A stretch of DNA of 64,000 bases, from the NCBI GenBank assembly GCA_965197925.1, contig CBDAOC010000018.1, forward strand, positions 128,001 through 192,000, read 5' to 3'. Both the position numbers and the translations under genes were made by a program. The notes beneath the pieces are model-generated. The model had not been told where the DNA came from, made no database searches, and saw only the letters and a program-made list of their open reading frames with translations. Shown one piece after another: positions 9,151 to 64,000 of this stretch; position 1 is the first letter of the stretch; each line of letters opens with the position of its first letter. The DNA is from Nitrososphaerales archaeon (GTDB taxonomy: Archaea > Thermoproteota > Nitrososphaeria > Nitrososphaerales > UBA213).

Positions 9151-9321
9151 AGAAAGAATCCCGACTCGACTCCATAACTTTTCCTCTTTTTCTTTTTACT
9201 AATTCTTTGTAATTTGAAATTAACTTATATCATGCTAAATTAGCATAATTATTCCAAATAATAGTAAACAGACGACATTCTTCTAGAAAGGTTAAATATT
9301 CTTAGTTCTCATTTCCACGCA

Positions 9322-11611
9322 TTGAGGGATACATTCTTTGTAGGAATCGTAGCGGGTATACTTGTGCTTGCATTCACTTTACCCATCCTCTTGGGACATA
9401 ATGAAGCTGTTAGTTTGGAAATGGAAAATGAAGGAACTGCGCAAGAGATGATAGAAGAAGAATTTGGTAGGCATTTAGTTGACACCGAAACCATAAATCT
9501 TCATGACTGGATAAATCCAGGTGATTTCATCCTTCTAATAGACATCACAACATACTTGTCTGAAGAGGGACATGTTGCAATAAAAGTTCCATGTGGACCT
9601 GATGGTGAACAACTTTTAACTCTACTCACTGGTGTGGCACCAGATGTTGCTCCTGTAAAAATGGAGTATGTTGCCCCACTTTCGAATCCACCATTATCAT
9701 GTGTTTATCATGCAGATATAGGCGAAGGTATTACAGATATCGCTCTAGCAAACACGTCGGAAGAAAGAGTTCGCTTCCACGGTAATGCTGGATATACTGC
9801 AACCATAACGATACATGGTGAAAAAGGTGAAGGACATGCATTACTGCATATGACTACTCACGTCTTTTATGCAACACTGAAGACTGGAAATGCCGTCACT
9901 GCCATACCCGATGATGAACAATGGTTTGCGGGTAAAAGTATGACGAAGTCATCCCAATACTCTCCAATACATCATAATCGACGAAATGATAACAAATGCC
10001 AGATAGTTTTGTGCATTCTTCTCATATCTGATCCTGGTTCTGTGGAACCCATTCTTCAACCAGGCAAAGAATCTCTCCACAACATAGCGCGTCTTGCCGT
10101 ATAGGTATTGTTCTGTATTATCATTTTGTTGTTGTGTCTTACTGTTTTTTCTGTAAGGTATGCAGTCAGAGATTTTTCTTTTGGTGAGGTATTTCCTGAT
10201 GAATTCTGCATCATAGCCCTTGTCTGCTTGGCACCGCGCAATTTTTCTGATAGATCTCTCATCCAGATATTGTGAGATGCCATCCATCACGTCTACAAAT
10301 CTTGCAGAGTCATGCTGATTTGCAGGACCCATCACTACTGAGACTGGCAGTCCGTTTTGTTCCACCGCAACGTGTATTTTTGTGCCTGAAATCCTGTTGA
10401 ATCCGTTGTATCCTATGACGCTTCCCCTTTTTTGGCCGGAACTGATGACGAATCGACCGTTTTTTGCAGCTGCATCTTGCCTGATCTGTGGGCTGATTTG
10501 ACTGCAGCGGAGAGGATATTCTTCCATATTCCACGTCGCTGCCAGTTCTGCAGTCTGCGGTGCGCAGTTGATTTGGAGCCGTACCTTTGTGACATCCCAG
10601 TCCACCTGCATCCTGTTATCCCGACAAACAGGATTCCGTTGACTGTCTTTCTGTCGTCTGCCCTTGGCCTTCCGGTTCTGGCTGGCTTGGGGAGATGCGG
10701 TGATATCATCTTCCATTGTTCACCTGTTATCTCCTGAAATTTCATGATCTGCTACGGGCAGCATTGCAAATAGATCCAAATGATCGTCAATTATTCACTA
10801 AATGATCAGTTTTGGGATCAGTTGGACATATATCTCCACTACGGTAGATAGACGCCTGACATTAGCAACCAGCAGCGGTGAAGACCAAGTGTATGCCTTT
10901 GATACTAGAACAGATGAATTGATCACTACCGTAAAAGTTGGCGAAACACCAAAGGGTATCAAGATCTCACCAGACGAGAAGTTGGCTTTTGTGGCCAATG
11001 AGGCCTCCGGCTCGATAAGTGTTATAGATTTGTCCACATGGAATGTTGTTAAAGAGATTCCAGTTGGTGAAATACCACATAATAGTATCTTCTCACCAGA
11101 TGGGAATCAAGCTTATGTTACCATCCAAGGGGGAGATGAAGTGGCGGTGATTGATGTGGAATCTCTCGAGAAGATTGCGTCGATCCCCTTAGAGAAGAAC
11201 TCGCACAATTTAGACATCACACCTGACGGCAAATACCTCTTCGTGGCAAACATTGGCACTAAGGATGTGGCTGTGATAGACCTCGCAAGTCATGAAGTCA
11301 TGAAGAAGATCGAGGTGAGTACAGGTCACCATGGGATAGATGTGTCACCTGATGGAGACCGAGTGTATGTTTCGGGGATAGGCTCCGATAAAGTGAATGT
11401 TATTGATACCGATACACTAGAACTGGTTAAGCAGATTACGGTTGGGGATGGTCCACATGGTTTACGAACTAGTCCCGACGATAGTCTTCTATATGTTGGT
11501 GTAACTACAACTAACGAGTTCGTTGTCATTGATACAAATAGTCTGGAGATCATCGAACGCATTCCAACAGGGAATGAGCCCTTTTGGATCGCAATGCCCG
11601 GTAATCCTTAA
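9322..11611 (+). pseudogene. Secreted YVTN/YncE beta-propeller protein split by IS5
   Basis: Signal-like N-terminus; removing IS 9945-10824 and one GAC copy restores ...FAGKSMTYISTTVDRR in frame; repeated SPDG..YV..VAVID blades. Confidence 0.85.
9945..10824 (-). mobile_element. IS5-family element, 880 bp, copy 1; two-ORF transposase (10413-10745 and 9949-~10430) joined by a probable -1 frameshift
   Basis: Imperfect terminal IR GAAGTCATCCCAATA / TTTTGGGATCAGTTG; GAC duplication on both sides; AAAAAAGGGG slippery site; motifs TGCRW, GTKIHVAVE, ADKGYD, RYVVERFFAW. Confidence 0.93.
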
Positions 11612-12576
11612 CGATAAGCAGAGATGGGAATGCCACATTTAGAAAATGTATGACAAACCTAACATGTAAACATCCAAAAATTCCTCTCATCGATGCGTCT
11701 CCGCATGATGTCTAACTCAATTGGAGAAAAATGTGTTTAGTCTCTCATTGAAGCAAGGATATTTGTCAAAGATCTTAAAAAGCAATTTCAATAATAATAA
11801 GATGGTGTTTGATGAAACATCAGGCATTTTAATTTGAAAATGAATGTATATGAACAACTTCTAGGAAACTTAACCCAAACTCTGGTAATTGTTGAACTCG
11901 GAGGATTGGGTGGGTTTATACTTTCATTTATTCATTGTTATTGCAGTTCTATTCCGATGGAAGGTCTATAACAATTTTTCTCACCAATAGAGATAAAGAA
12001 ATAATATAATTAGAACCTTGTACCTGCCTATCCAAGAACAGGAAATGGAAATCAAAGAATGGAAATCACCATATATATAACTTTACGACGTAACATTATA
12101 GTCGATAGAGGATATGTTCCGCTTAATTCTTGTTGCTAAAAAATAGATTTAAGAAGGTCTTCAGCAAATATCATGGGGAATACAATGATAAGTATAGTTA
12201 TTCAAGTTACTACATGGATGGAAGGAAACTACAATTAGAAATCATTTCGACATTCAATTGTAATAAGTCCAGACCATGGATTCCTACTTGGTGAGACCAT
12301 ATTCGAGCCCCACCAATCTTATAATATCTTTTTATCTTTTTTTTGACTTCAGGTTATGCCTCCCATTACTACCATGAAGGAAAATCGGGTAAGTTTGACT
12401 TGCTAAATGTGTGATATCAAATTTTCAATTCAGATTCAGAAAGATCCTAAACTTGAAGTCCATTGTTATGAATTGAAATACGATAATATGGATGAATTGT
12501 TACTTTTTAATGAAATGACTAAAACCAATCTTCTAAGTCTCAAAAGACTTACATTCCTGTAGAATTAAGTAAATTC

Positions 12577-13353
12577 ATGGCAAGAAGCAAGACAACATAC
12601 GTGATTGCAGCTGCGATATTTGCAGGGTTATCATTGGTAGCCTTGACGAACATCTTCTCAGATGAGATTGAAACTGAATTGACAAATGAATCAGAGGCAT
12701 ATGCTCAGTACAGTTCCCTAGTAGGGATTAGACAGAATATAATTACAGTATCAGGCTCTGCATCAACAGGGGGGGATCCAAACCGAGTAGTTATAAGCTT
12801 CGGTCTTGAGACGCAAGGAACCACCGCCTCTCAAGCAACTGAAGATAACGCTCAGAAGATGGATGCTGTTGTTAATGCTGTAAAGGAGCTTGGGATTGAT
12901 GATGACGAGATTAGCACATCGATGTTTTCGGTATCTCCAGTCTATGATAGAGACAGAAGATTCATCACTGGATATAGAACATCAAACATGCTTACTGTCA
13001 ACACAGACCAATTAGATAAAGCAAGTCAGATAATCGATACTGCTGTAGCTGCTGGAGCAAACAGAGTGAATAATGTGTTCTTCACACTCTCCGACGATCT
13101 TAGAAAGAGAGTTAGTGACCAGTTGATCGGCGAGGCTGTGAATGATGCAAAGATGAAAGCTGAATTAGCGTTACAACCACTAGGCAAGGAAATATTAGGA
13201 GTCAAGAGTGTTACACTGGAACATTTTGGAATACCCCAACCTGTATCATTTGATACAATTGCGATGGCGAAGAGCACAAAATCTCTACCAACACCGATCT
13301 TTGAATCTGAGCAACGAGTAACTATGAGTGTTAGTGTGATATTCCTGATCTAG
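12577..13353 (+). CDS. SIMPL (DUF541) domain protein
   Basis: N-terminal TM, ITVSGSAS, AVAAGANRVNNVFF, AVNDAKMKAE. Confidence 0.88.
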   Translation: MARSKTTYVIAAAIFAGLSLVALTNIFSDEIETELTNESEAYAQYSSLVGIRQNIITVSGSASTGGDPNRVVISFGLETQGTTASQATEDNAQKMDAVVNAVKELGIDDDEISTSMFSVSPVYDRDRRFITGYRTSNMLTVNTDQLDKASQIIDTAVAAGANRVNNVFFTLSDDLRKRVSDQLIGEAVNDAKMKAELALQPLGKEILGVKSVTLEHFGIPQPVSFDTIAMAKSTKSLPTPIFESEQRVTMSVSVIFLI

Positions 13354-13639
13354 AAGAGAAAGTATTTGTGAGAAGTTAAAACATACACCTCCATTTTTTT
13401 TGAAATATCAACTACTCAATCCATTAAGTATTGAATTCTTTTGGACCCACGAATAATATTTTCATACTAGTTTTGCAATTTTATGAACTATTAATTATAG
13501 GAATGATATCCCTGGTGATGCAGATTAGGGTAGTACTAATCTATTTGGAAACAGCTTCATTATAGCATGTCTCATAATTATTAACATTGCCCAATTTTCT
13601 AGATAGGAATTATCTTAGATCAGTTTCAAAATACTCCAT

Positions 13640-14430
13640 ATATGAAGGAAGGTAAGAAAAATATCGTGTCAAAGATATTATATATTCTTGATGATCTTTA
13701 AGAAGAATTCAAATTGATACTTCCAAAGAAACGAACGCAATTAGAAGTACTACGATAAAGAGTAGTGATGGGTAGTATTAATTTTTCTGAGAAGTGGATC
13801 CAGTGACAAAAGATATCCAAGGACTATTCCAAGTTCGCATTATCGTGGAAGTTTCCTAAGTAAAATGAAATAATGGTTTTTTAGTAGATGTAGAATAAGC
13901 CCCTAAAGTGGTATGATACATTGAATGGTCAATGATCAGAGGTGAAATTATTAGATAGTGCTTCAGAATGTTCTATAAAAGGAGGAACCGGCTAAAAATA
14001 CAAGGGAAAGCAAGCTACCACTAGATACTTACATTCTAGTTGAATTGAATAGATTACTTCACACATCTAAAGGTACTGAAATAATAGATCCTATATGAAA
14101 ACAGCCCTTCCTACAATAGACGGTAATATAACGAAAAATCTAAGTTAACCAGAATATCTGTTTGGATAATAGATACACCATTCAAGAATCAGAGGATGGT
14201 GTTAGAAGGTAGTATGCAAGTTACACTCGTTATAAGAGTAGAATGTTCAAAGAGAATTTGGGGAAATTTCGATCAGTTGTATCTTTGGGGAACAAGAGTT
14301 TTCTGTTCATATTACATATTAGCTAAAGTCGAGCCATCGGATAGGGTATACATCATATTAGTTAGCTCTCACTCTTTCTAATAAACAGTCAGAAAACCAT
14401 GCGGCTAGTGAGAAATCAATACTGTATTGC
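13640..14430 (+). pseudogene. Heavily degraded IS5-family remnant related to the 21463-22514 element
   Basis: From 13667 translates VSKILYILDDL*EEFKLILP, resembling MPTIWHIPDNLWEEFKLVLP; LRSG-QW-like segment follows; boundaries approximate. Confidence 0.6.
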
Positions 14431-36595: not shown

Positions 36596-36619
36596 AATAT
36601 TTAATTAATTGACAATCTA

Positions 36620-36801
36620 GTTTCAATCCTTGTTATTATGGATTCATCATTATGATTATGATCATTCGTTCATAACGATCCCAGAGTGTCGGTTTCAATC
36701 CTTGTTATTATGGATTCATCATTATGATTCAAGTGTATGCTCATCGACCTCAATCCGTATATTAGTTTCAATCCTTGTTATTATGGATTCATCATTATGA
36801 T
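36620..36801 (-). CRISPR. Orphan CRISPR mini-array: 3 identical 37-bp repeats, 2 spacers (35 and 36 bp)
   Basis: GTTTCAATCCTTGTTATTATGGATTCATCATTATGAT at 36620, 36692 and 36765; the reverse strand ends in ATTGAAAC with an AATCC/GGATT hairpin; orientation inferred from that end motif. Confidence 0.92.
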
Positions 36802-38030
36802 CTTTATCGTCGTAATATGCTGTTAATTTCTCTCCAGATGCGTTTGTCAATCTATCTTTTGGGCATAACCTTGATGGAATCTCCATCATTGATGATGGTT
36901 ATTCTTTTGATTCGTTTTCCAGGATTATTTACAAAGTTTGGTTTTGTACCGGCTTGTTTGATTAAATCCATGCACTTGTCCCGTCCAAGAGCAAGATCAA
37001 CGTTGGTTGCTTTGGCAGGTGTCTTGCCATTCAGACCCCTTATGTGGCTTTACAAAGTTATGGTTTATCTTCAACAGTTCTGAGAATGTCTGGACTGATT
37101 CATCATTGCCCAGTCCACTCCTTGCCTTGAGTCTCTCCCTGATTTTGTTGTGGTATATTTCCATTGGCCTGTTACAAATCCGTCTTTTAGTGATTTTGTC
37201 TTAATGTGCACTGTCCTGTTTTCAAATTCTTTTCTGATTGCCTCTTGGTAGGAGTTTAGGGGATCGGTTAGAATATGGTTCGGGTTTTTTTGATACCGTC
37301 CTCTTACCGCTTGGAATAATCTTCCTTGCATTTGCAACTTCACGTCTTTTGGAGACTTTTGTAGATATGGGAAATCGGGTTTTAGGATTTATAATACTCC
37401 ATAACCAATCATAAAATCCCTTTCCGGCCTTCTTTATGTTCTTGACGTTTAGAACCATTTCATCAAGTGACCAGGCATCACCTAAATCAGGATAAAATGA
37501 TTCTACATATTCTTTGATCAAGTATATGTGATTTTTTTATCCAGTTGATGACAGACACATGGGTTATTGAAATTCTATGTGTTGATTCTATATGTCTTGC
37601 AGTATTTCTGTATGAAACACCAGATATTACTAGGTTGATTGATTCGTAGATTATCTTGGGATCCGATGATACCTTTGAAAAACCATTCTCACCCAGAACG
37701 AATTTTCTATTGCATTGCTTGCAAGAATATTTCTGTCGTTTTGTTCCGTTTTTAAGCTTTCTGAATCCATGTTTGACTATAATGATAGAGTTGCATCTTG
37801 GACATATCTGTAGTCTTTCAGTCTTTTCGATTCTGTTTTGAATGGGAGATATTTTCTTTTAGGATAACGCAGCTCTGAATATACCCGCAATGCTTGTCAT
37901 CCTGCGTTCTTAACCTGTAATGAAAGTCATGGCATTCACAAGTCCAAATATCAACATCCGGGAATCTCTGAATGTTATACTGTTTTTTTGAGTTTTGGGA
38001 ATCTACAACATGTGGTTGTTTGTAATTTTA
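36802..38030 (-). pseudogene. IS6/IS1-like DDE transposase pseudogene with SWIM and Zn-ribbon N-terminus
   Basis: Reassembled frames: WTCECHDFHYR..C (SWIM), CPRC..KHGFRK..QKYSCKQC, HTH, WSLDEMVL, LTDPLNSY, HNFVKPHKGLNGKTPA; several frameshifts. Confidence 0.8.
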
Positions 38031-55038: not shown

Positions 55039-58000
55039 TCATATGTGGCCAGTAGTTACTAAACGAAGAATAGAAAAAATTGGTTTTATATCTCCCTTAA
55101 TTATGAGCTTCACAGCGGAATAATGCCTCACCGTTCTGACAAGTCCCCCCCCAACATCATTCTCACCGCCATCTAACCTATCTATACCTATACCACCAAA
55201 CAAGTTATCATCTCCATCTTGTCCAAATAAACTGTCATCCTCTGTTCCACCAGACAAACCATCATTACCATCCCCACCAAATATACGGTCATTTCCAGAA
55301 CCACCAAATGCTCTGTCATTACCTTGACCAAGACTTATGAAGTCGTGTCCCATTCCACCACCTGCTGTATCATTACCATTTCCTCCAAATATCTTATCAT
55401 CTCCATCTCCACTACAGATTATGTCATTGCCGCCTAATCCAACTATGGTATCATTTCCTCCCAATCCATGGATTACATCAACTTCGCCTGTTCCCACAAG
55501 GATATCATTACCTGCAGTGCCTATTAGAGTAGGCATCACATTAAAGCAGTTTAGCCCAATTCCTTCAATATTTATGATACCATTAAACTCCTGGTTCATA
55601 GATGAACCATCTCTGATATCCATGTAATTTGCTTCAAGGTCCATCATCTCTGTTATCACAGATACGGGAGGAGTTTCAGGAGTGCCAGGCGTTGCATCAA
55701 CCAGTATCGCCATTGGTATGGTTATCTGTGCTACAAATGTTCCAGTATTGGTACCTGTCTCCAATAGTGTAGTATTTACTGCATTGAAGAAAGAGTCTAT
55801 TTCTCCTGGTGCACAGCTATTGGCATCACCACCTAGTATACCAGATACCGCTGGATCTACCTCTGAGCATACTCTTTCTTCACTTAACTCGAAGAAGACA
55901 AAACTATCAATGGGTAGGTGGTACCTCTCTTGGGAATCTGCTCTTCTGTTAAGGTCCTCATCCTTTATGGTCAGGAAGGCATCCTGTCCAAATGAGAATA
56001 AACTCCTATCCCATTCTATCATACCATCTCTAGTTTCGTAGTCGAATGTTACATTTACTTCCCTGAAGAAATCTACGCTGTCAGTATCGAAGTATGTGAA
56101 CGCTAATCTGTTGGGTGTAACTAATCTATTCGGTACCCACATCTTCACTGGATCACCAGTCAAGGTAATGTCAGCCAATATATCCGACACGGTGTCGAAT
56201 TGGTTGAACGTGAAAAAATCAGCCCTCCCGCTGAATACACTGGAGTTAGAACCATCTTCACCAAGGTCCATCCTGTAGGCAACGTTTGAGAATGCAGTAC
56301 CTATAGGTGAGGCGATATTGTCAGGCTCCTGATCGGTTGGTGCAGGAGAGAATACTACGCCGAGTCCAACTATGTCTACTAGTATGGTGTGGGCAACTAG
56401 ACTTATGATATCAGCCGTATCGATTATTCCTGAATCATCATCTAGTAAGAGTGTAGTTACTCTAATCTGGTCCTCTGGTTCAACCATTGGATAGTCTACC
56501 AAGTCAAGAACTCTGAATGCACCCACAGAGATCCTACTTGTTGTTAGGTCTCTGTCGAAACCAACAGCATCGCTACCTGTTAGTGTGTCCCAAGGATCAC
56601 CTGGTCCAATTACACCAGGAGACAAATCAGGTAAGCTATCATAAACTTCTCCAGTCAATGGATTTCCGTCTATGTCTCTATTGTCCGTCTCTTTTATCTG
56701 AAAGTCAACTATCTGTGATGCATGTACACATGTCTCGTCGAATGCGATCTCTGAATCTGTTTCTCCATCAGCCATACATGCTGGATCTACAGCGTCTATC
56801 TTTGCAACTAGTTGTTCGATTCCTGTTGTGGTATGAAGTTGTTGTACATTCATGTGCAGAAGGTTATACCTTGGCATGTCAACGGTAAGCAATTCATCAT
56901 CAGGTATAGGACCTGCGCCCAATAGGCCGAGAACTACATCCCTTCCTATTACCTCACCTGTAGATCTGGTGATTCTTGCTACTTGTGTGACAAAGTTCTC
57001 TTGCTGTTCATCCAGCAATGAACCGCCAAATTCCTGTAAGTTATTTACCCTTATCTGTCCCAGAATCTGGGCTTTAGTGGCCGTTGTACTGAATTGGACA
57101 TCATTGATATCGTCAATGGTTACACTGGTATCAATCATGATGGCATTGGGATTGTCAAAGCCGATCCGATCTGTGGTAAATACTAGGGAGAACTTGTCAT
57201 TTTCTGTTGGTAAATCAAATTCACTATCCCTGCTGACTGCTATAATATCAAAAAAATGAGCTTGGAACGCCTCTGGACCGAACGTGCCTCCTGTAGCGTC
57301 AACTACATCATCATCGTTGAAATCTGCAAGAACGTTAGCTCCTGTGTCATTTAGACCGAACAATGCAGTATCCCCTTGCGCTGACAAGAATATAGCTTCC
57401 CATATCTGAAGGACGTTGTTCAATGTTGGGTCAAATATTCCACCGGCATCAAGAGCAGTCCTCGTGTTAATTAGAGGGATTGGTTCTCCAACTTCTAATA
57501 TGTTGTTTGCATTCCTTCCATCACGTGGTTCACTTGCTGCGCTACTCAAGTTCTGGTCAGGATCTGTGACAATAAATACCGCTCTATCAGCAGAATCAAA
57601 AACCTCTCCATCAACACTTGTAATGCCATCATGTAAAGCAAATGGAACACTGCTGACTAAATCGAAGTACTTGAAATTAGCAATTCTGTCTCTAACACCT
57701 GCGAATATTGTAGACCTGTCACCTTTTCTTGCTTGACCCGTGTTGAAGCTGCCAGAGTTTGGTTTGGCTGATGCTTCATTGATCCTAACTACAGATGAAA
57801 GGTCTCCTGGTTGTGCAGCACTGATATCTATTGGTATAGCGGTACCTGGTAAGAATACAGTATCGATATCGTCAAATTCTGTAGTTAATCTGGCATTCTC
57901 TCTTACTAGAATGAATGAGGAGAGTCTGGTACAAAGTTCACTTCCCTATCCAGAGATTCTGAAAAGGCGAAGATCCATGCTACAGATTCAACTCCATCGT

Positions 58001-58268
58001 CAAGCTCGAGTATCTGTCTGTGGTCAAAGTCAATGTCGGGGAATATTGGAAGTACATCCTGTTTTTTAATTGATCCTTTTGGCGAGCTTAGAATCTTCTC
58101 TATGAATCCAGTGTCTTTGTTCAAGACCATAAAAAGTTGGTCAACTTCTCGTGGATTAATATTCCACTGAAAGTCGTTGATTTCGTAGAATATCTCTGCA
58201 CCCAGTAGATAAGAATTTCTATCTAGGGATGATGTAATAGATTCCGGCAAGTCATCAAATGTAAGTAT
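55039..58268 (-). pseudogene. S-layer (SlaA-like) paralog with C-terminal RTX-type Ca-binding repeats; 5'-truncated by IS and frameshifted near 57910
   Basis: LDRNSYLLGAE, VTDPDQN, LGEDGSNSSVFSG, IKDEDLN, LLETGTNTGTF motifs; GGxGxD nonapeptides at the C-terminus. Confidence 0.7.
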
Positions 58269-59148
58269 GAAGTCATCCCAATACTCTCCAATACATCATA
58301 ATCGACGAAATGATAACAAATGCCAGATAGTTTTGTGCATTCTTCTCATATCTGATCCTGGTTCTGTGGAACCCATTCTTCAACCAGGCAAAGAATCTCT
58401 CCACAACATAGCGCGTCTTGCCGTATAGGTATTGTTCTGTATTATCATTTTGTTGTTGTGTCTTACTGTTTTTTCTGTAAGGTATGCAGTCAGAGATTTT
58501 TCTTTTGGTGAGGTATTTCCTGATGAATTCTGCATCATAGCCCTTGTCTGCTTGGCACCGCGCAATTTTTCTGATAGATCTCTCATCCAGATATTGTGAG
58601 ATGCCATCCATCACGTCTACAAATCTTGCAGAGTCATGCTGATTTGCAGGACCCATCACTACTGAGACTGGCAGTCCGTTTTGTTCCACCGCAACGTGTA
58701 TTTTTGTGCCTGAAATCCTGTTGAATCCGTTGTATCCTATGACGCTTCCCCTTTTTTGGCCGGAACTGATGACGAATCGACCGTTTTTTGCAGCTGCATC
58801 TTGCCTGATCTGTGGGCTGATTTGACTGCAGCGGAGAGGATATTCTTCCATATTCCACGTCGCTGCCAGTTCTGCAGTCTGCGGTGCGCAGTTGATTTGG
58901 AGCCGTACCTTTGTGACATCCCAGTCCACCTGCATCCTGTTATCCCGACAAACAGGATTCCGTTGACTGTCTTTCTGTCGTCTGCCCTTGGCCTTCCGGT
59001 TCTGGCTGGCTTGGGGAGATGCGGTGATATCATCTTCCATTGTTCACCTGTTATCTCCTGAAATTTCATGATCTGCTACGGGCAGCATTGCAAATAGATC
59101 CAAATGATCGTCAATTATTCACTAAATGATCAGTTTTGGGATCAGTTG
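58269..59148 (-). mobile_element. IS5-family element, 880 bp, copy 2
   Basis: Same length and identical ORF translations as 9945-10824; flanks TAT/GAT, no target duplication. Confidence 0.93.
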
Positions 59149-60757
59149 GATAAAGGTAAACGTTGACTTCGTAGAACTTTCAGCTTGATGTATAACTTCC
59201 CATCCTTTTCGAATGTTTCAATGTGCTCAATATCCCGTTTTCCTAAATTACCAAACCCTCGTTGCTTCCATTTACCATTGAACCTATAAAATCCATTTTG
59301 AAGGTAGAACACGTCATCAGCATGATCCTTGGAAGAAAACTCACCTAACTCCGAGGAGTCTAGGCCAAGTTCTTTGGTGGTGCAGATTGAATCGGTTGCA
59401 AAACTAACAACACCCCTTCCCAAGGCATTATCAACCACAAATTTGTAAAGCTAAGCTCTAGTACTCCCTGTTATGGTTGCAAAAATAACAGGGCAGAATA
59501 AGTTTCCTATTACGTGTTTAACTTTCTGGCCTGTCTTTCCGTATATAGAATTTAGAATTAACTTTATGACTGATTGACGTGGATCGTTAGCAGTCTTTAG
59601 TTCCATCCTTTTCTGGTAAAGGTCTTCAATAAAGTTCTTGTATGGACGATAATCAGAGTTTGGGATAAACTGCCGAGATTGCAATATTTTATAATATGTA
59701 TTTGGACATGCTCTCAGCTCATCTATCGTTGCATATGTTATGAAACGGCCAGAAGGAAAGCTCAAGTCGCCATTAACTCTAAAAGGAAATGGTGCGATGT
59801 AATTCCCGTCTGGAATGTCTGCCAGAATTTTGAAAAAGCCTAGCTTTGCGTCATAATGAATATTGTTTCCATTTATCCACCTTCCGTCAGTCAGATCTGG
59901 AAGTTTAGCATTTTATCTGGATATGCCGAGTTTATATCATATAGGAATGCCTTGCCAATGAACCCACGTTTCAGCATCTCAAATCTTCCCCCAAAATATG
60001 ATCGAAAAGCCAAGTCCTGTACGTCATAGGGAATGGAATCAAACAGTGGAAAGTTTAACCCACTGTTTATCACCACCTTTTCTGCTAGATATGCAGGTGA
60101 GAGCCATTTTTGTGGAAAAAATCCAAAGATATCATAAAACAGATGTATCCAATGTTGTGATAACTCTTCCGTATACTTACAGTCCTGAATACAATAATTT
60201 CTTACCTCATTAGTATTACGGCGATAAAACCTTGGAGAAAATTGACTTCTATCCCCCTTGAAACCTAGATACGACTCATCTACGGGGCCTATATTATCTT
60301 GGTAATCCTTTGCAAGACCCTTACCGTAGAATTGCGCTATATCATAAAACTTTACGGAATGATGACCTTTATTGATAGTGAGACATTTTTTCGGATAGTA
60401 AGTATAGCGGTAATCTCCATACTTGAACGATAATTTTCCAGTAGTCTTATACGTGCTTAACGCATTCCCAAACACTGCTTTTAAAATAACTTCAGCATCA
60501 TATTCCAATCGATAGAAGAAATTCCATGCACCTTGGTACTTCTTACAATAAAGAAATCTTGTCAAAGACATAGGCGTTATTTTATCGAGATACCTTTTAT
60601 CAGAATCTGCTATTAGAAATACATCGCCCTGATAGGTTTCTACATCTACAGCATAGACTTTTCGTGGTTCTGATTTTGCTGGATCTCTGTACTGGATTTT
60701 ATTAGTCCATAACTTTCGTAGATCCTTGTAGTCTGTTATGGAGATGGATTCTGCCAT
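59149..60757 (-). pseudogene. polB: Family B DNA polymerase, protein-primed/casposon type; frameshift near 59905, in-frame TAG at 59451-59453, 3' end cut by IS5
   Basis: ExoI DVET, ExoII LEYD, ExoIII YCIQD, SYFGGRFE, motif A YDINSAYP, motif B KLILNSIYGKTGQ, motif C ATDSI. Confidence 0.88.
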
Positions 60758-61109: not shown

Positions 61110-61469
61110 TTAGGGCGATCTGCTTTCGAATTCAAAAACAAATCGCCTGATAGTTCTCCCTGTTGTCAGTGACTTCCCTAACCATGTTTTTAGTTTGAAT
61201 TTTATACCTGGTTTGATGAGTCCCTCCTCATATGTGCTCCATTGGTTCTGTAGACTGACATTGTTGGACGTGTTTGATTTCAGTAGAATTACAACGTCGT
61301 GGAATTTGTCGTCTTGTTTTAGCTGTGCTTTGACATTCGTAGAATACATGGTCTCGAATGTCTCGATATCTGTTATCTTCATCTCTAGGATGTCTGGATT
61401 GTTTGCGTCACTGGATTTGTAGGGCCCCCAATTGACGAATGGAGCCCAGTTAGTTCGGTCCTGTGTCAT
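61110..61469 (-). CDS. Hypothetical beta-rich protein, possibly OB-fold/SSB-like
   Basis: Intact ORF in the polB operon; fold is inference only. Confidence 0.55.
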   Translation of the reverse strand: MTQDRTNWAPFVNWGPYKSSDANNPDILEMKITDIETFETMYSTNVKAQLKQDDKFHDVVILLKSNTSNNVSLQNQWSTYEEGLIKPGIKFKLKTWLGKSLTTGRTIRRFVFEFESRSP

Positions 61470-61653
61470 TGCTCTTTATCCCCTTAATGGGCGTCAGAGT
61501 GAGCTTTCCATCTGTACCCATGGTCATATATACTCTCATTCCTTTATCCAGGAAATTGTCGGTGAATGTCTTAGGCAAAGTAACCACTTTTGAAAAATTC
61601 ATGGTGCTCACCTTCCTTATGCCTAGATTCAGATTCTTCTTCATATTTTTCAT
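61450..61653 (-). CDS. AbrB/MazE-like DNA-binding protein
   Basis: RKVSTMNFSKVVTLPK..LDKGMRV..GKLTLTP swapped-hairpin pattern. Confidence 0.7.
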   Translation of the reverse strand: MKNMKKNLNLGIRKVSTMNFSKVVTLPKTFTDNFLDKGMRVYMTMGTDGKLTLTPIKGIKSNDTGPN

Positions 61654-61720: not shown

Positions 61721-62359
61721 ATGATTAGCAGTGAACCACGCAGAACAGACAAGAGTGTCCCTAGGAGGACGGAGTTTGGAGAAGTAAAGCAAAGAGAGAT
61801 ATCGATTCTTAAAACCATCAAGGAACATCCAAACATACATCACAACGCATTGAAGAAAATTATTGTTGAGGAGCTGGATCTTGTAGCAATTAAAACATTT
61901 GACCGATTAATAAAAGAATTGATAAAAACTTACAAGATTTCTTTTACTTATGAGAATAATAAAAAGCTCTATTCGATTCCAAATATTTCAATTCTACAAG
62001 ATTCTCAGGATTTAATAATACCGTATCTAAACTCTATGAACGAGCATCTTAAAATATTTGAAAAAGTGTATCCAAGGCTGTCTTATTATGAGAAGGTTGT
62101 AATTTCAGAGCATTTTGTTAAACAATTGCTGAGTAACTTATACGGGATAGATTTGTACCGTCAAATTAATTCTGATAAAAAAATAGAAGATTATCTTCAA
62201 ATCAAAGATGATTTTATGAAAAAGATAAGGAAGATTTTAGAAATATTCTCCCACGATTCTGCCGGTGGTGCTTTAACTTCCAACCTTCTATTTAGCATAA
62301 TAAATCTGAATCCAGATCAGAATGCCGAAGTAGCCTCCCTAATGAATTCTAAGAAATAA
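61721..62359 (+). CDS. Winged-helix protein, divergent from the polB operon
   Basis: ILKTIKEHPNIHHNALKK...TFDRLIKELI...KKLY. Confidence 0.65.
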   Translation: MISSEPRRTDKSVPRRTEFGEVKQREISILKTIKEHPNIHHNALKKIIVEELDLVAIKTFDRLIKELIKTYKISFTYENNKKLYSIPNISILQDSQDLIIPYLNSMNEHLKIFEKVYPRLSYYEKVVISEHFVKQLLSNLYGIDLYRQINSDKKIEDYLQIKDDFMKKIRKILEIFSHDSAGGALTSNLLFSIINLNPDQNAEVASLMNSKK

Positions 62360-62374
62360 TAAAATTCCTCTATT

Positions 62375-62605
62375 CTAATCAGATCCACTTCCAGAGTCCA
62401 CCTTGAGGACCTCACAAAATTCTTCTACAATAGTTATTTCGGAGAGGCTCTTTACCTTTGGTTCTCTGCTTGATTGCGTTTCTATTTTTTCTTTGATTAC
62501 TTTCCGTATAGGAGCTGAAGGAGTGCATCCCTCTTTGTTGCATATATCCACTAATCTATTATGTTCATCCTCTGTAAGTTTGTTAGATACCATTCGTTGA
62601 CCCAC
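62375..62605 (-). CDS. RHH/CopG-like protein within IR arm 1
   Basis: RMVSNKLTEDEHNRLVDICNKEGCTPSAPIRKVIKE beta-alpha-alpha pattern. Confidence 0.65.
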   Translation of the reverse strand: MGQRMVSNKLTEDEHNRLVDICNKEGCTPSAPIRKVIKEKIETQSSREPKVKSLSEITIVEEFCEVLKVDSGSGSD

Positions 62606-62861
62606 GGTAGACCTAGGTAGACAATAGATAGACCTGAGCTAAAAAACTTTCGATTATAATAAATTCAACGCTTACGACAAGCGTCAGTTTTCTAGGCGTA
62701 AAAGGGGGGGATACCATTTTTATTCAGTAGCTATAAAAAGTGATTCCCCCCTCCTAGGCACGGATTTGTGTCGCTTACTAGATTATAATACACGTTATGG
62801 TCTACCTCTATAATCGAAAGTTTTTTAGCTCAGGTCTATCTATTGTCTACCTAGGTCTACC

Positions 62862-63092
62862 GTGGGTCAACGAATGGTATCTAACAAACTTACAGAGGAT
62901 GAACATAATAGATTAGTGGATATATGCAACAAAGAGGGATGCACTCCTTCAGCTCCTATACGGAAAGTAATCAAAGAAAAAATAGAAACGCAATCAAGCA
63001 GAGAACCAAAGGTAAAGAGCCTCTCCGAAATAACTATTGTAGAAGAATTTTGTGAGGTCCTCAAGGTGGACTCTGGAAGTGGATCTGATTAG
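62862..63092 (+). CDS. RHH/CopG-like protein within IR arm 2 (identical copy)
   Basis: Identical translation to 62375-62605. Confidence 0.65.
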   Translation: MGQRMVSNKLTEDEHNRLVDICNKEGCTPSAPIRKVIKEKIETQSSREPKVKSLSEITIVEEFCEVLKVDSGSGSD

Positions 63093-63247
63093 AATAGAGG
63101 AATTTTATTATTTCTAATTAAGCAATGCAGCTAAGGTAATCAATATCCTTCTTTTGGGCGATATTTTTTACCATATATAAAAACAAAGGTGTAGATCCCC
63201 AACTATAATTAACCCTATATGATCCTTATAGAATAAATGATTGAGAA

Positions 63248-63725
63248 ATGAAAGTGTGGAGATCCTTCGGGGAAGCCAGAAAGTTTGTACATTCATTAAA
63301 ACTAAAAAATAAGAACGAGTGGCAACAATATTGCAAGTCTGACGAAAAACCTGGTGATATTCCGTCTTCACCGGATAAGATCTATCGAAATAAGAGTTGG
63401 TATGGTTATCTTGACTGGTTAGGGAACGAGGCGAAAAGGGGTAGAAAACTTTGGCTAGGAAAGCATTTTGCAGAAGAACGTCAGAGAAAGCTGAACAAGG
63501 CGGGAAGGGGTAGAAAGAAATCGGAAGAACATAAAAGAAAGAAGAGCAGGTAAAAACGGTAAAAAAAGAACAGAAGAATCAAAGAGAAAGATGAGTGAGG
63601 CGGCAAAGGGCAAAACAAATTCTGGTCACTTCAAAAAAGAGGTAATACCTTAAAATAGAGGAAAAAGAGGAGTATATTCAGAAGAAACTAAGAGAAAGAA
63701 GAGCGAGGCGATGAATGGTAAAAAG
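63248..63725 (+). pseudogene. Integrase-repeat-like unit plus NUMOD3 DNA-binding repeats (homing-endonuclease-like), frameshifted and truncated
   Basis: SFGEARKFVHSLKLK...EW...IPSSPDKIY...W...DWLG followed by KKSEEHKRK, RTEESKRKMSEAAKGK, YSEETKRKKSEAMNGK. Confidence 0.65.
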
Positions 63726-64000
63726 AGTATCCCCCTCCTAGGCACGGATTTGTGTCGCTTATCTAAATTAATACGCAGGTTATGATTAGTTGGATAATGG
63801 TTAAGATCTTAATAAGTCAATACATTGTGAAAAGTTTATTCTTGCACAGTTATGGACTTTTAATAAAAGTCAAGAATATCAGATTAGTATTCTCTTAAGG
63901 AATAGATCCCTTCAATGACAATAGGGAAATCTTAGAGCTGCCTGCAAGAGCTTGTCCATTTTAAAGTGATCATACAGGGGAATGGTTATGTTTCTATTGA

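Follow-up and report, generated by a model that had tools for sequence, protein, structure and literature searches.

A perfect 307-bp inverted repeat straddles a tandem casposon junction in a Nitrososphaerales archaeon

Two ends of casposons, which are self-copying transposons of archaea, face each other across a 13-bp target site duplication in the window analysed here (a 64,000-nt stretch of contig CBDAOC010000018.1), and a perfect 307-bp inverted repeat, with one identical gene in each arm, straddles this centre. In the interpretation that we favour and consider probable, two different, decayed family 1 casposons meet across the single duplication, and the arms are a later, functionless inverted copy of the RHH-like cassette that lies subterminally in the left element. 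The tandem junction itself is an already described arrangement, of which this locus is a decayed new example. The mirror duplication around it probably represents a one-off accident. The features of the repeat and its centre are as follows.

62352-62658, minus strand: left arm, probably native, with GTAGAC/GTCTAC repeats, the RHH-like gene and a T-rich 3' end
62375-62605, minus strand: RHH-like gene copy 1 (76 aa), differing from its closest homologues by T8N and L32P
62666-62721, minus strand: left-facing family 1 casposon terminus (the true TIR), tip at 62721, profile E 5e-9, best match in the genome
62722-62734, minus strand: 13-bp target site duplication common to both ends, with A1, A11 and T13 after TTT on the minus strand
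62735-62799, plus strand: right-facing family 1 terminus of a different lineage, tip at 62735, breaking off after a conserved TTATG
62800-62808, plus strand: nine non-terminal bases ahead of the right arm that may be a short templated insert or else the start/operator motif native to an RHH gene
62809-63115, plus strand: right arm, probably a derived copy, in place of the sequence that normally follows this type of end and with a 3-bp repeat at its borders
62862-63092, plus strand: RHH-like gene copy 2, 76 aa, identical to copy 1

The inverted repeat and the casposon junction at its centre

The arms (62352-62658 and 62809-63115) are 307 nt each and 100% complementary, with 150 nt between them. 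Neither side allows an extension of the match, and no third copy of the arm is present in the 2.91-Mb genome. Each contains an identical 76-aa ORF (62375-62605 on the minus strand, 62862-63092 on the plus strand). The 50-nt central palindrome at 62703-62752 is present as a sequence-only reading of this DNA had written it, but the imperfect symmetry of the centre extends over approximately 45-55 bp per side, not 20. Six read runs from three studies contain 98% of the sampled words, and four of them, one of which may be the source sample, were examined closely. In all four runs (three studies), the arm formed a single 307-nt contig with no differing letters, and the two inner and two outer junctions were bridged by contigs, which do not phase the orientation of the spacer. 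Arm depth against flank depth was 18.4 against 12-14.5, 39 against 19.5-22.3, 52.7 against 25.1-29.5 and 50 against 24.7-27, that is, 1.3-2.1 times the flanks. Assemblies do contain inverted chimeras, and the relative G005 has a candidate 4.8-kb perfect repeat, but the roughly doubled depth together with all four junctions in 4/4 runs from three studies makes a fold-back or chimeric artefact very unlikely, close to negligible. The perfect mirror repeat is a real genomic structure, and the two arms and 150-bp spacer of the sequence-only reading are confirmed in both sequence and reads, the fold-back that it had named as its own undoing being very unlikely.

The ends at the centre were matched by a profile made only from casposon ends of other species, with the reversed genome as control. 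In addition to the clear left-facing end, the right-facing end was detected at E 0.009, against a best reversed-genome score of E 4.5, and it is identical at 49 of 52 positions to the end directly behind the aEF-2 gene of the same genome, a gene labelled from the match of its 3' end to the published target. The 13 bp between the tips agree with what the family 1 casposase of N. koreensis AR1 targets, a 13-bp duplication with A1, A11 and T13 after TTT (PMC8464041). Thus, two facing ends, one 13-bp duplication, the A1/A11/T13 pattern and the TTT leader are all present, which identifies the centre as a tandem junction of family 1 casposons, made of an end, a 13-bp target duplication and an end. 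The earlier proposal of two casposon termini head to head therefore holds, both ends being matched by the other-species profile; its gap of approximately 9 bp was wrong and is the 13-bp duplication at 62722-62734.

Further copies of the duplication at outer ends were not found. The genome holds no second exact copy of the 13-mer, only seven one-mismatch sites without an end motif, and no host gene ending in the codons spelled by it was found. The loss of the outer copies is as expected if an IS-linked deletion removed the outer ends. Only 8 of the 13 bases match the published aEF-2 target, the classical casposon target (PMC4046053, PMC6563490).

In relatives, each element opens with an A-run that is followed by 5-8 bases and then a C-run, and 13-bp direct repeats lie on both sides of it. 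The geometry of end, 13 bp and end is common to 38 distinct other junctions. These comprise 31 loci from a junction census and seven from separately fetched loci, one duplicate having been removed. The census was a pattern scan over 36 of the 64 parts of the species genomes, which gave at least 118 loci; the 31 with Nitrososphaerota titles were kept and 87, mostly from Prochlorococcus and other bacteria, were dropped. In one orientation, 28 of the 31 census spacers carry A11, while A1 and T13 are forced by the search pattern. Tandem insertion has been described for family 1 in strain NF5 (PMC6563490) and for family 2 in Methanosarcina (PMC4779613), and it has been shown in vivo (PMC10359463). 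With 38 examples here against one in what we could consult of a 2019 survey, it is common for unrelated family 1 casposons to meet in tandem.

In all 11 whole elements (L063-L081), a run of 5-6 A's is present at each tip, inside the 13-bp duplication. The complement of this terminal A-run would rebuild the TTT leader after each insertion, which offers a testable reason for casposons stacking like CRISPR spacers. In another genome (G163), two elements with converging polB genes lie around one junction.

A decayed element on either side

The left side holds the following features.

58267-59148, minus strand: IS5-family insertion sequence truncating polB, with DDE_Tnp_1 and DUF4096
59149-60757, minus strand: broken protein-primed PolB of a family 1 casposon, PF03175
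60736-61069, minus strand: conserved gene directly upstream of polB, frameshifted, its two frames matching one ORF in relatives
61110-61469, minus strand: conserved family 1 casposon core gene, 119 aa, 35-49% identical to same-position genes of related casposons
61450-61653, minus strand: small core gene, weakly AbrB/MazE-like, 67 aa, 64% to the orthologue in L091
61721-62359, plus strand: winged-helix-like gene, 212 aa, full length, its final 8 nt within the left arm

The order of PolB, three small conserved genes and the winged-helix-like gene is that of relatives, in which the last has counterparts of 192, 204 and 211 aa in the corresponding position. The element thus has the protein-primed PolB and the conserved small genes upstream of polB that mark family 1; the position directly upstream of polB is that of the proposed terminal protein (PMC4046053). 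PolB residues 1-534 are 46-63% identical to the 592-624-aa PolBs of related casposons, and relatives of this PolB occur in 25 of 301 genomes of the class, including its own and the unpublished genome G184, which is counted in this tally only. The gene has a frameshift near 59910 and a stop at 59451-59453, is truncated by the IS and lacks its last ~60 codons; the decay of polB noted in the sequence-only reading is borne out. The IS5-family element has about 40 near-identical copies in the genome, several of them with matching flanks. Its 3-bp flanks here do not match (TAT/GAT), which suggests that a deletion at the IS probably took away the far end of the left casposon; of the element's two TIRs, one end is clear (E 5e-9) and the other is lost there. 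No cas1 lies between the tip at 62721 and the IS, stubs being found only to the right; in some relatives cas1 lies beyond polB, in the segment lost here. On the far side of the IS, a large RTX-repeat protein gene in two frames (window 55039-58250) seems to have lost its start to the IS at 58267, and elsewhere in the window three CRISPR-like repeats at 36618-36808, approximately 72 bp apart, adjoin an IS.

Right of the inverted repeat, three further casposon features reach the end of the window.

63248-63719, plus strand: casposon cargo relic, a 101-aa ORF (weak INT_rpt) and NUMOD3-like repeats, with homologues inside casposons of G005, a genome of the same family as the window's
63720-63784, plus strand: third casposon terminus, of the same type as that at 62735 and pointing right, with a 31-nt exact repeat, profile E 6e-4
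63839-64000, plus strand: casposase (cas1) pseudogene reduced to a 5' stub, interrupted by stops and frameshifts and continuing to ~64076, beyond the window

An open casposase reading frame is present on another contig, C1 (L004:1339-2535), where the outer end was removed by an IS, and the ends described here could in principle remain substrates of that casposase.

That the facing ends derive from two different elements is indicated by their tips, which have 0 bases in common after the A-run, whereas the two ends of one element share 12-75 bases in 11 of 11 single elements. Facing ends at other junctions share 0-5 bases in 36 of 38 cases and 10-12 in two. Moreover, each tip is closer to ends elsewhere in the genome than to the opposite tip. 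The sequence-only reading had instead seen a second copy of the PolB element, or a circle. A single element whose long TIR carries the RHH gene, in the form of a circle junction or tandem dimer, would fit casposon TIRs of up to 602 nt (PMC4046053), the circular intermediate proposed, though undetected, for M. mazei (PMC10359463) and the two direct-orientation IS copies that flank the 8-kb region in a cointegrate-like arrangement. It is contradicted by the tips and by the absence of a polB C-terminus beside the second IS copy (67257), where a circle needs one. Neither near-identical tips nor an element contiguous around a circle was found, and the inner flanks of the two IS copies differ (GAT, AAT). 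We therefore hold a single-element origin to be highly improbable. A cointegrate between the two IS copies was also considered and rejected on the mismatch of the inner flanks and the missing polB C-terminus by the second IS; a search for the partner end through the polB C-terminus gave a fragment at C20:1009847 without an adjoining IS or end.

Other casposon remains were observed in this genome and its relatives. From window position 63720 to ~1.9 kb past the window's end, two cas1 5' stubs lie between facing ends together with an intact paralogue of the TATA-binding protein, its DNA 82% identical to the copy on C17 (L001:5720-7893). At L001:8262-9015, an aEF-2-like 13-mer occurs together with a casposon end at a site other than aEF-2; after them come a DUF5615 (PIN-like) gene and another RHH-like gene, which shares 47% identity with that of the arms. 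Further solo casposon ends lie at C20:205553, C20:766356, C20:213314, C6:3800, C1:35813 and C1:77858. The first is at the 3' end of a host gene, presumably a GMP synthase, a target absent from those parts of the casposon literature that were examined. In G005, a unit of 1.6 kb (L078:4742-6353, contig C43) is bounded by casposon-type ends, with one and the same 13-mer on either side; it encodes an RHH-like gene and NUMOD3 ORFs, with no cas1 or polB, and is a candidate natural non-autonomous mini-casposon. A unit of ~0.9 kb in G004 (L076:422-1393, contig C218) lies between facing casposon-type ends and is followed by a 13-bp spacer and another end. The candidate perfect repeat of G005 spans at least 4768 bp (L075:656-5423 and 9233-14000, contig C6), includes host-like genes and ends inside homologues of the window's 101-aa ORF; it may be an assembly artefact.

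The arms, their RHH-like gene and the origin of the duplication

Because the arms begin 63 and 74 bp inside the tips, which differ and have not been homogenised, they are not TIRs, contrary to the earlier description of them as the TIR of the element. At the 38 other junctions, 36 of which had at least 300 nt on both sides, no perfect inverted repeat longer than 17 bp was present. The flanks of the arms suggest a direction of copying. On the left, homology with another casposon end in the genome extends 41 bp into the arm (76/102), and the arm contains the stop of the full-length winged-helix-like neighbour gene. On the right, sister ends continue past TTATG into a conserved stretch, and these sisters have ATAAT in register with the arm start. 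From the homology crossing into the left arm, the neighbour's stop and the break-off on the right, the left arm is probably native and the right arm copied. Arm DNA had no match in eight same-family genomes (five >90% complete), two of which had end motifs only. As no empty pre-duplication site was found in any genome, we infer the direction of copying and the switch points.

Recent copying or conversion of the arms, as proposed in the sequence-only reading, is borne out. The probability of zero differences between the arms is 0.29 at 0.2% per-copy divergence and 0.002 at 1%, so that perfect identity would date the copying only loosely and place it after most of the decay only if divergence since the decay is near 1%.

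The arm protein is likely an RHH regulator. It matches DUF6290 at a sub-threshold E 0.016, and its homologues, three of which are also 76 aa with the same start, match DUF6290 and NikA-like families at E 1e-4 to 4e-3, all likewise short of the cut-offs. Its ESM Atlas features score 0.91-0.92 to RHH clusters, and a weak fold model (pLDDT 60) has two helices. PDB sequence and Foldseek fold searches returned nothing significant, the RHH-type rows at E 5-9 being no evidence. Of the earlier claim of an identical RHH-like gene per arm, the identity stands, and the RHH label is likely and, with sub-threshold domain scores, unproven. Both copies have N in place of the T found in 17 of 18 homologues and P in place of a residue that is hydrophobic or aromatic in 17 of 18 and P in none; being common to both copies, these changes predate the copying. 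The protein is probably impaired, although P32 falls early in the second helix, a place in which proline can at times be tolerated, and the duplication is probably not under selection.

RHH homologues occur in 15 of 400 other genomes of the order. Among 19 homologue loci inspected, a clear casposon end was recognised by a simple pattern at L091 only, and none had an inverted repeat longer than 22 bp. L091, from a metagenome, is a casposon at aEF-2 with an intact polB, a short TIR and one RHH homologue starting 89 bp inside the tip. This single RHH gene just inside a short TIR comes close to one of the cases that the sequence-only reading had named as counting against it. Small RHH genes are listed among casposon cargo (PMC4046053). 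Viral contigs yielded no RHH homologue, and six viral pattern matches had no casposon marker. A further locus, L092, proved to be a spurious transposase match.

In the origin that we favour, a casposase inserted the second element at the target beside the first, as the sequence shows, by the mechanism known from the literature, and the T-run at each end would have recreated the TTT leader, permitting stacking. Both elements then decayed, as seen in the frameshifted and IS-truncated polB and in cas1 reduced to stubs. During replication or repair, the imperfect hairpin of end, duplication and end could align both sides; the nascent strand may have switched template at the common ATAAT, copied 307 bp of the left arm up to the stop codon of the winged-helix-like gene and come back by way of a 3-bp microhomology. 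Template switching is documented in bacteria and yeast (PMC5941160, PMC10622511). The spacer folds as an imperfect hairpin (z = -3.2), a fold equalled by 1 of 200 shuffles, and the nine bases ahead of the right arm have an 11/12 match 40 bp away in the arm (null 23/5000). The 3-bp repeat at the arm borders was rejected as stand-alone evidence, since it is found in 11% of random tests. Taken together, the 5-bp in-register entry match, the border repeat and the nine-base stretch are consistent with a strand that switched templates and later returned.

Among 24 closely spaced inverted repeats that were examined across the genome, the arms of 22 are present in 4 to 98 copies. Only this repeat and a perfect 381-bp one in the assembly (C20:508776-509156 and 511141-511521; L251) have two. 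The 381-bp copy is a mid-gene piece, of a source gene that we take from its motif to be patatin-like; some 2 kb separates it from that source, its borders show a 3-bp repeat, and it has no casposon end. This assembly-based duplication at a site without a casposon end suggests a host process.

Alternatively, both elements may already have had homologous RHH cassettes behind their facing ends, which gene conversion or quasi-palindrome correction made identical, an explanation that we consider possible but unlikely. An RHH gene behind a casposon end is natural, as at L091 with its 89-bp distance from the tip and in G005, which carries an RHH-like gene behind an end, and imperfect repeats are perfected by template switching elsewhere (PMC5941160). 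The ATG GTC TAC ahead of the right arm resembles the start of several homologues, and a GTCTAC-type hexamer occurs one to four times ahead of 10 of 13 RHH homologues, against 0.08 expected per 80 nt; the nine-base stretch thus resembles the upstream motif of the RHH family itself, which keeps conversion of two homologous cassettes in play. However, no diverged RHH sequence is left outside the right arm, the arm takes in the end of the gene neighbouring it on the left, and same-type ends elsewhere continue into other conserved sequence, which at 63720 leads to cas1.

Copying of the left cassette, as we prefer, would leave arms that could let the 150-bp spacer flip by homologous recombination, with no known consequence. 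The locus is accordingly a clean natural substrate for asking whether 300-bp arms flip a spacer in an archaeon. A maintained switch, in which flipping swaps the terminus and promoter facing each element, would make use of perfect arms around an asymmetric spacer, a plausible recombination substrate, and a promoter-like hexamer pair spans the left inner border only, although a bacterial consensus carries little weight in an archaeon. With both neighbours pseudogenised, no invertase among the nearby ORFs, arms at none of 38 other junctions and RHH copies that look damaged, such a switch is hardly probable. More speculatively, the junction hairpin may let a polymerase, perhaps the element's own strand-displacing PolB, copy a subterminal regulator cassette into the neighbour, and flipping of the ends may exchange casposase-recognised ends between neighbours and yield hybrid elements with long gene-bearing TIRs, which the C1 casposase might still be able to move. 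We regard this as doubtful; if true, it would explain long casposon TIRs and the exchange of ends between elements.

Comparison with known systems

In a literature search that took in few subscription journals, no report of an inverted duplication at a casposon junction was found. The closest arrangement in the sources consulted is that of NitNF5-C1 and NitNF5-C2 of Ca. Nitrosopumilus adriaticus NF5, where, as here, two unrelated protein-primed PolB casposons have only a common target duplication between them (PMC6563490). Unlike that pair, both elements here are broken and have lost their outer ends, their 13-mer differs from the aEF-2 target (8/13), and an inverted copy of 307 bp spans the junction. 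The target follows the rule reported for Ca. N. koreensis AR1, with a 13-bp duplication, A1, A11, T13 and a TTT leader, but differs in the inner bases; in the genomes compared here, the tips have 5-6 A's outside the TAGAA that the paper gives as the TIR end for AR1 (PMC8464041).

Family 2 casposons of Methanosarcina, as described in the material seen, resemble this locus in the reuse of one target, inactivated neighbours and many solo ends, and differ in having family 2 PolB and ends and closely related tandem copies (PMC4779613, PMC10359463). Perfect arms, an imperfect hairpin centre and microhomologies at the borders are also reported for template-switch correction and foldback duplications (PMC5941160, PMC10622511). 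Those processes were shown in bacteria and yeast, and the one here is a proposed counterpart. In yeast, according to the same sources, central mismatches are often corrected, whereas those at this junction remain.
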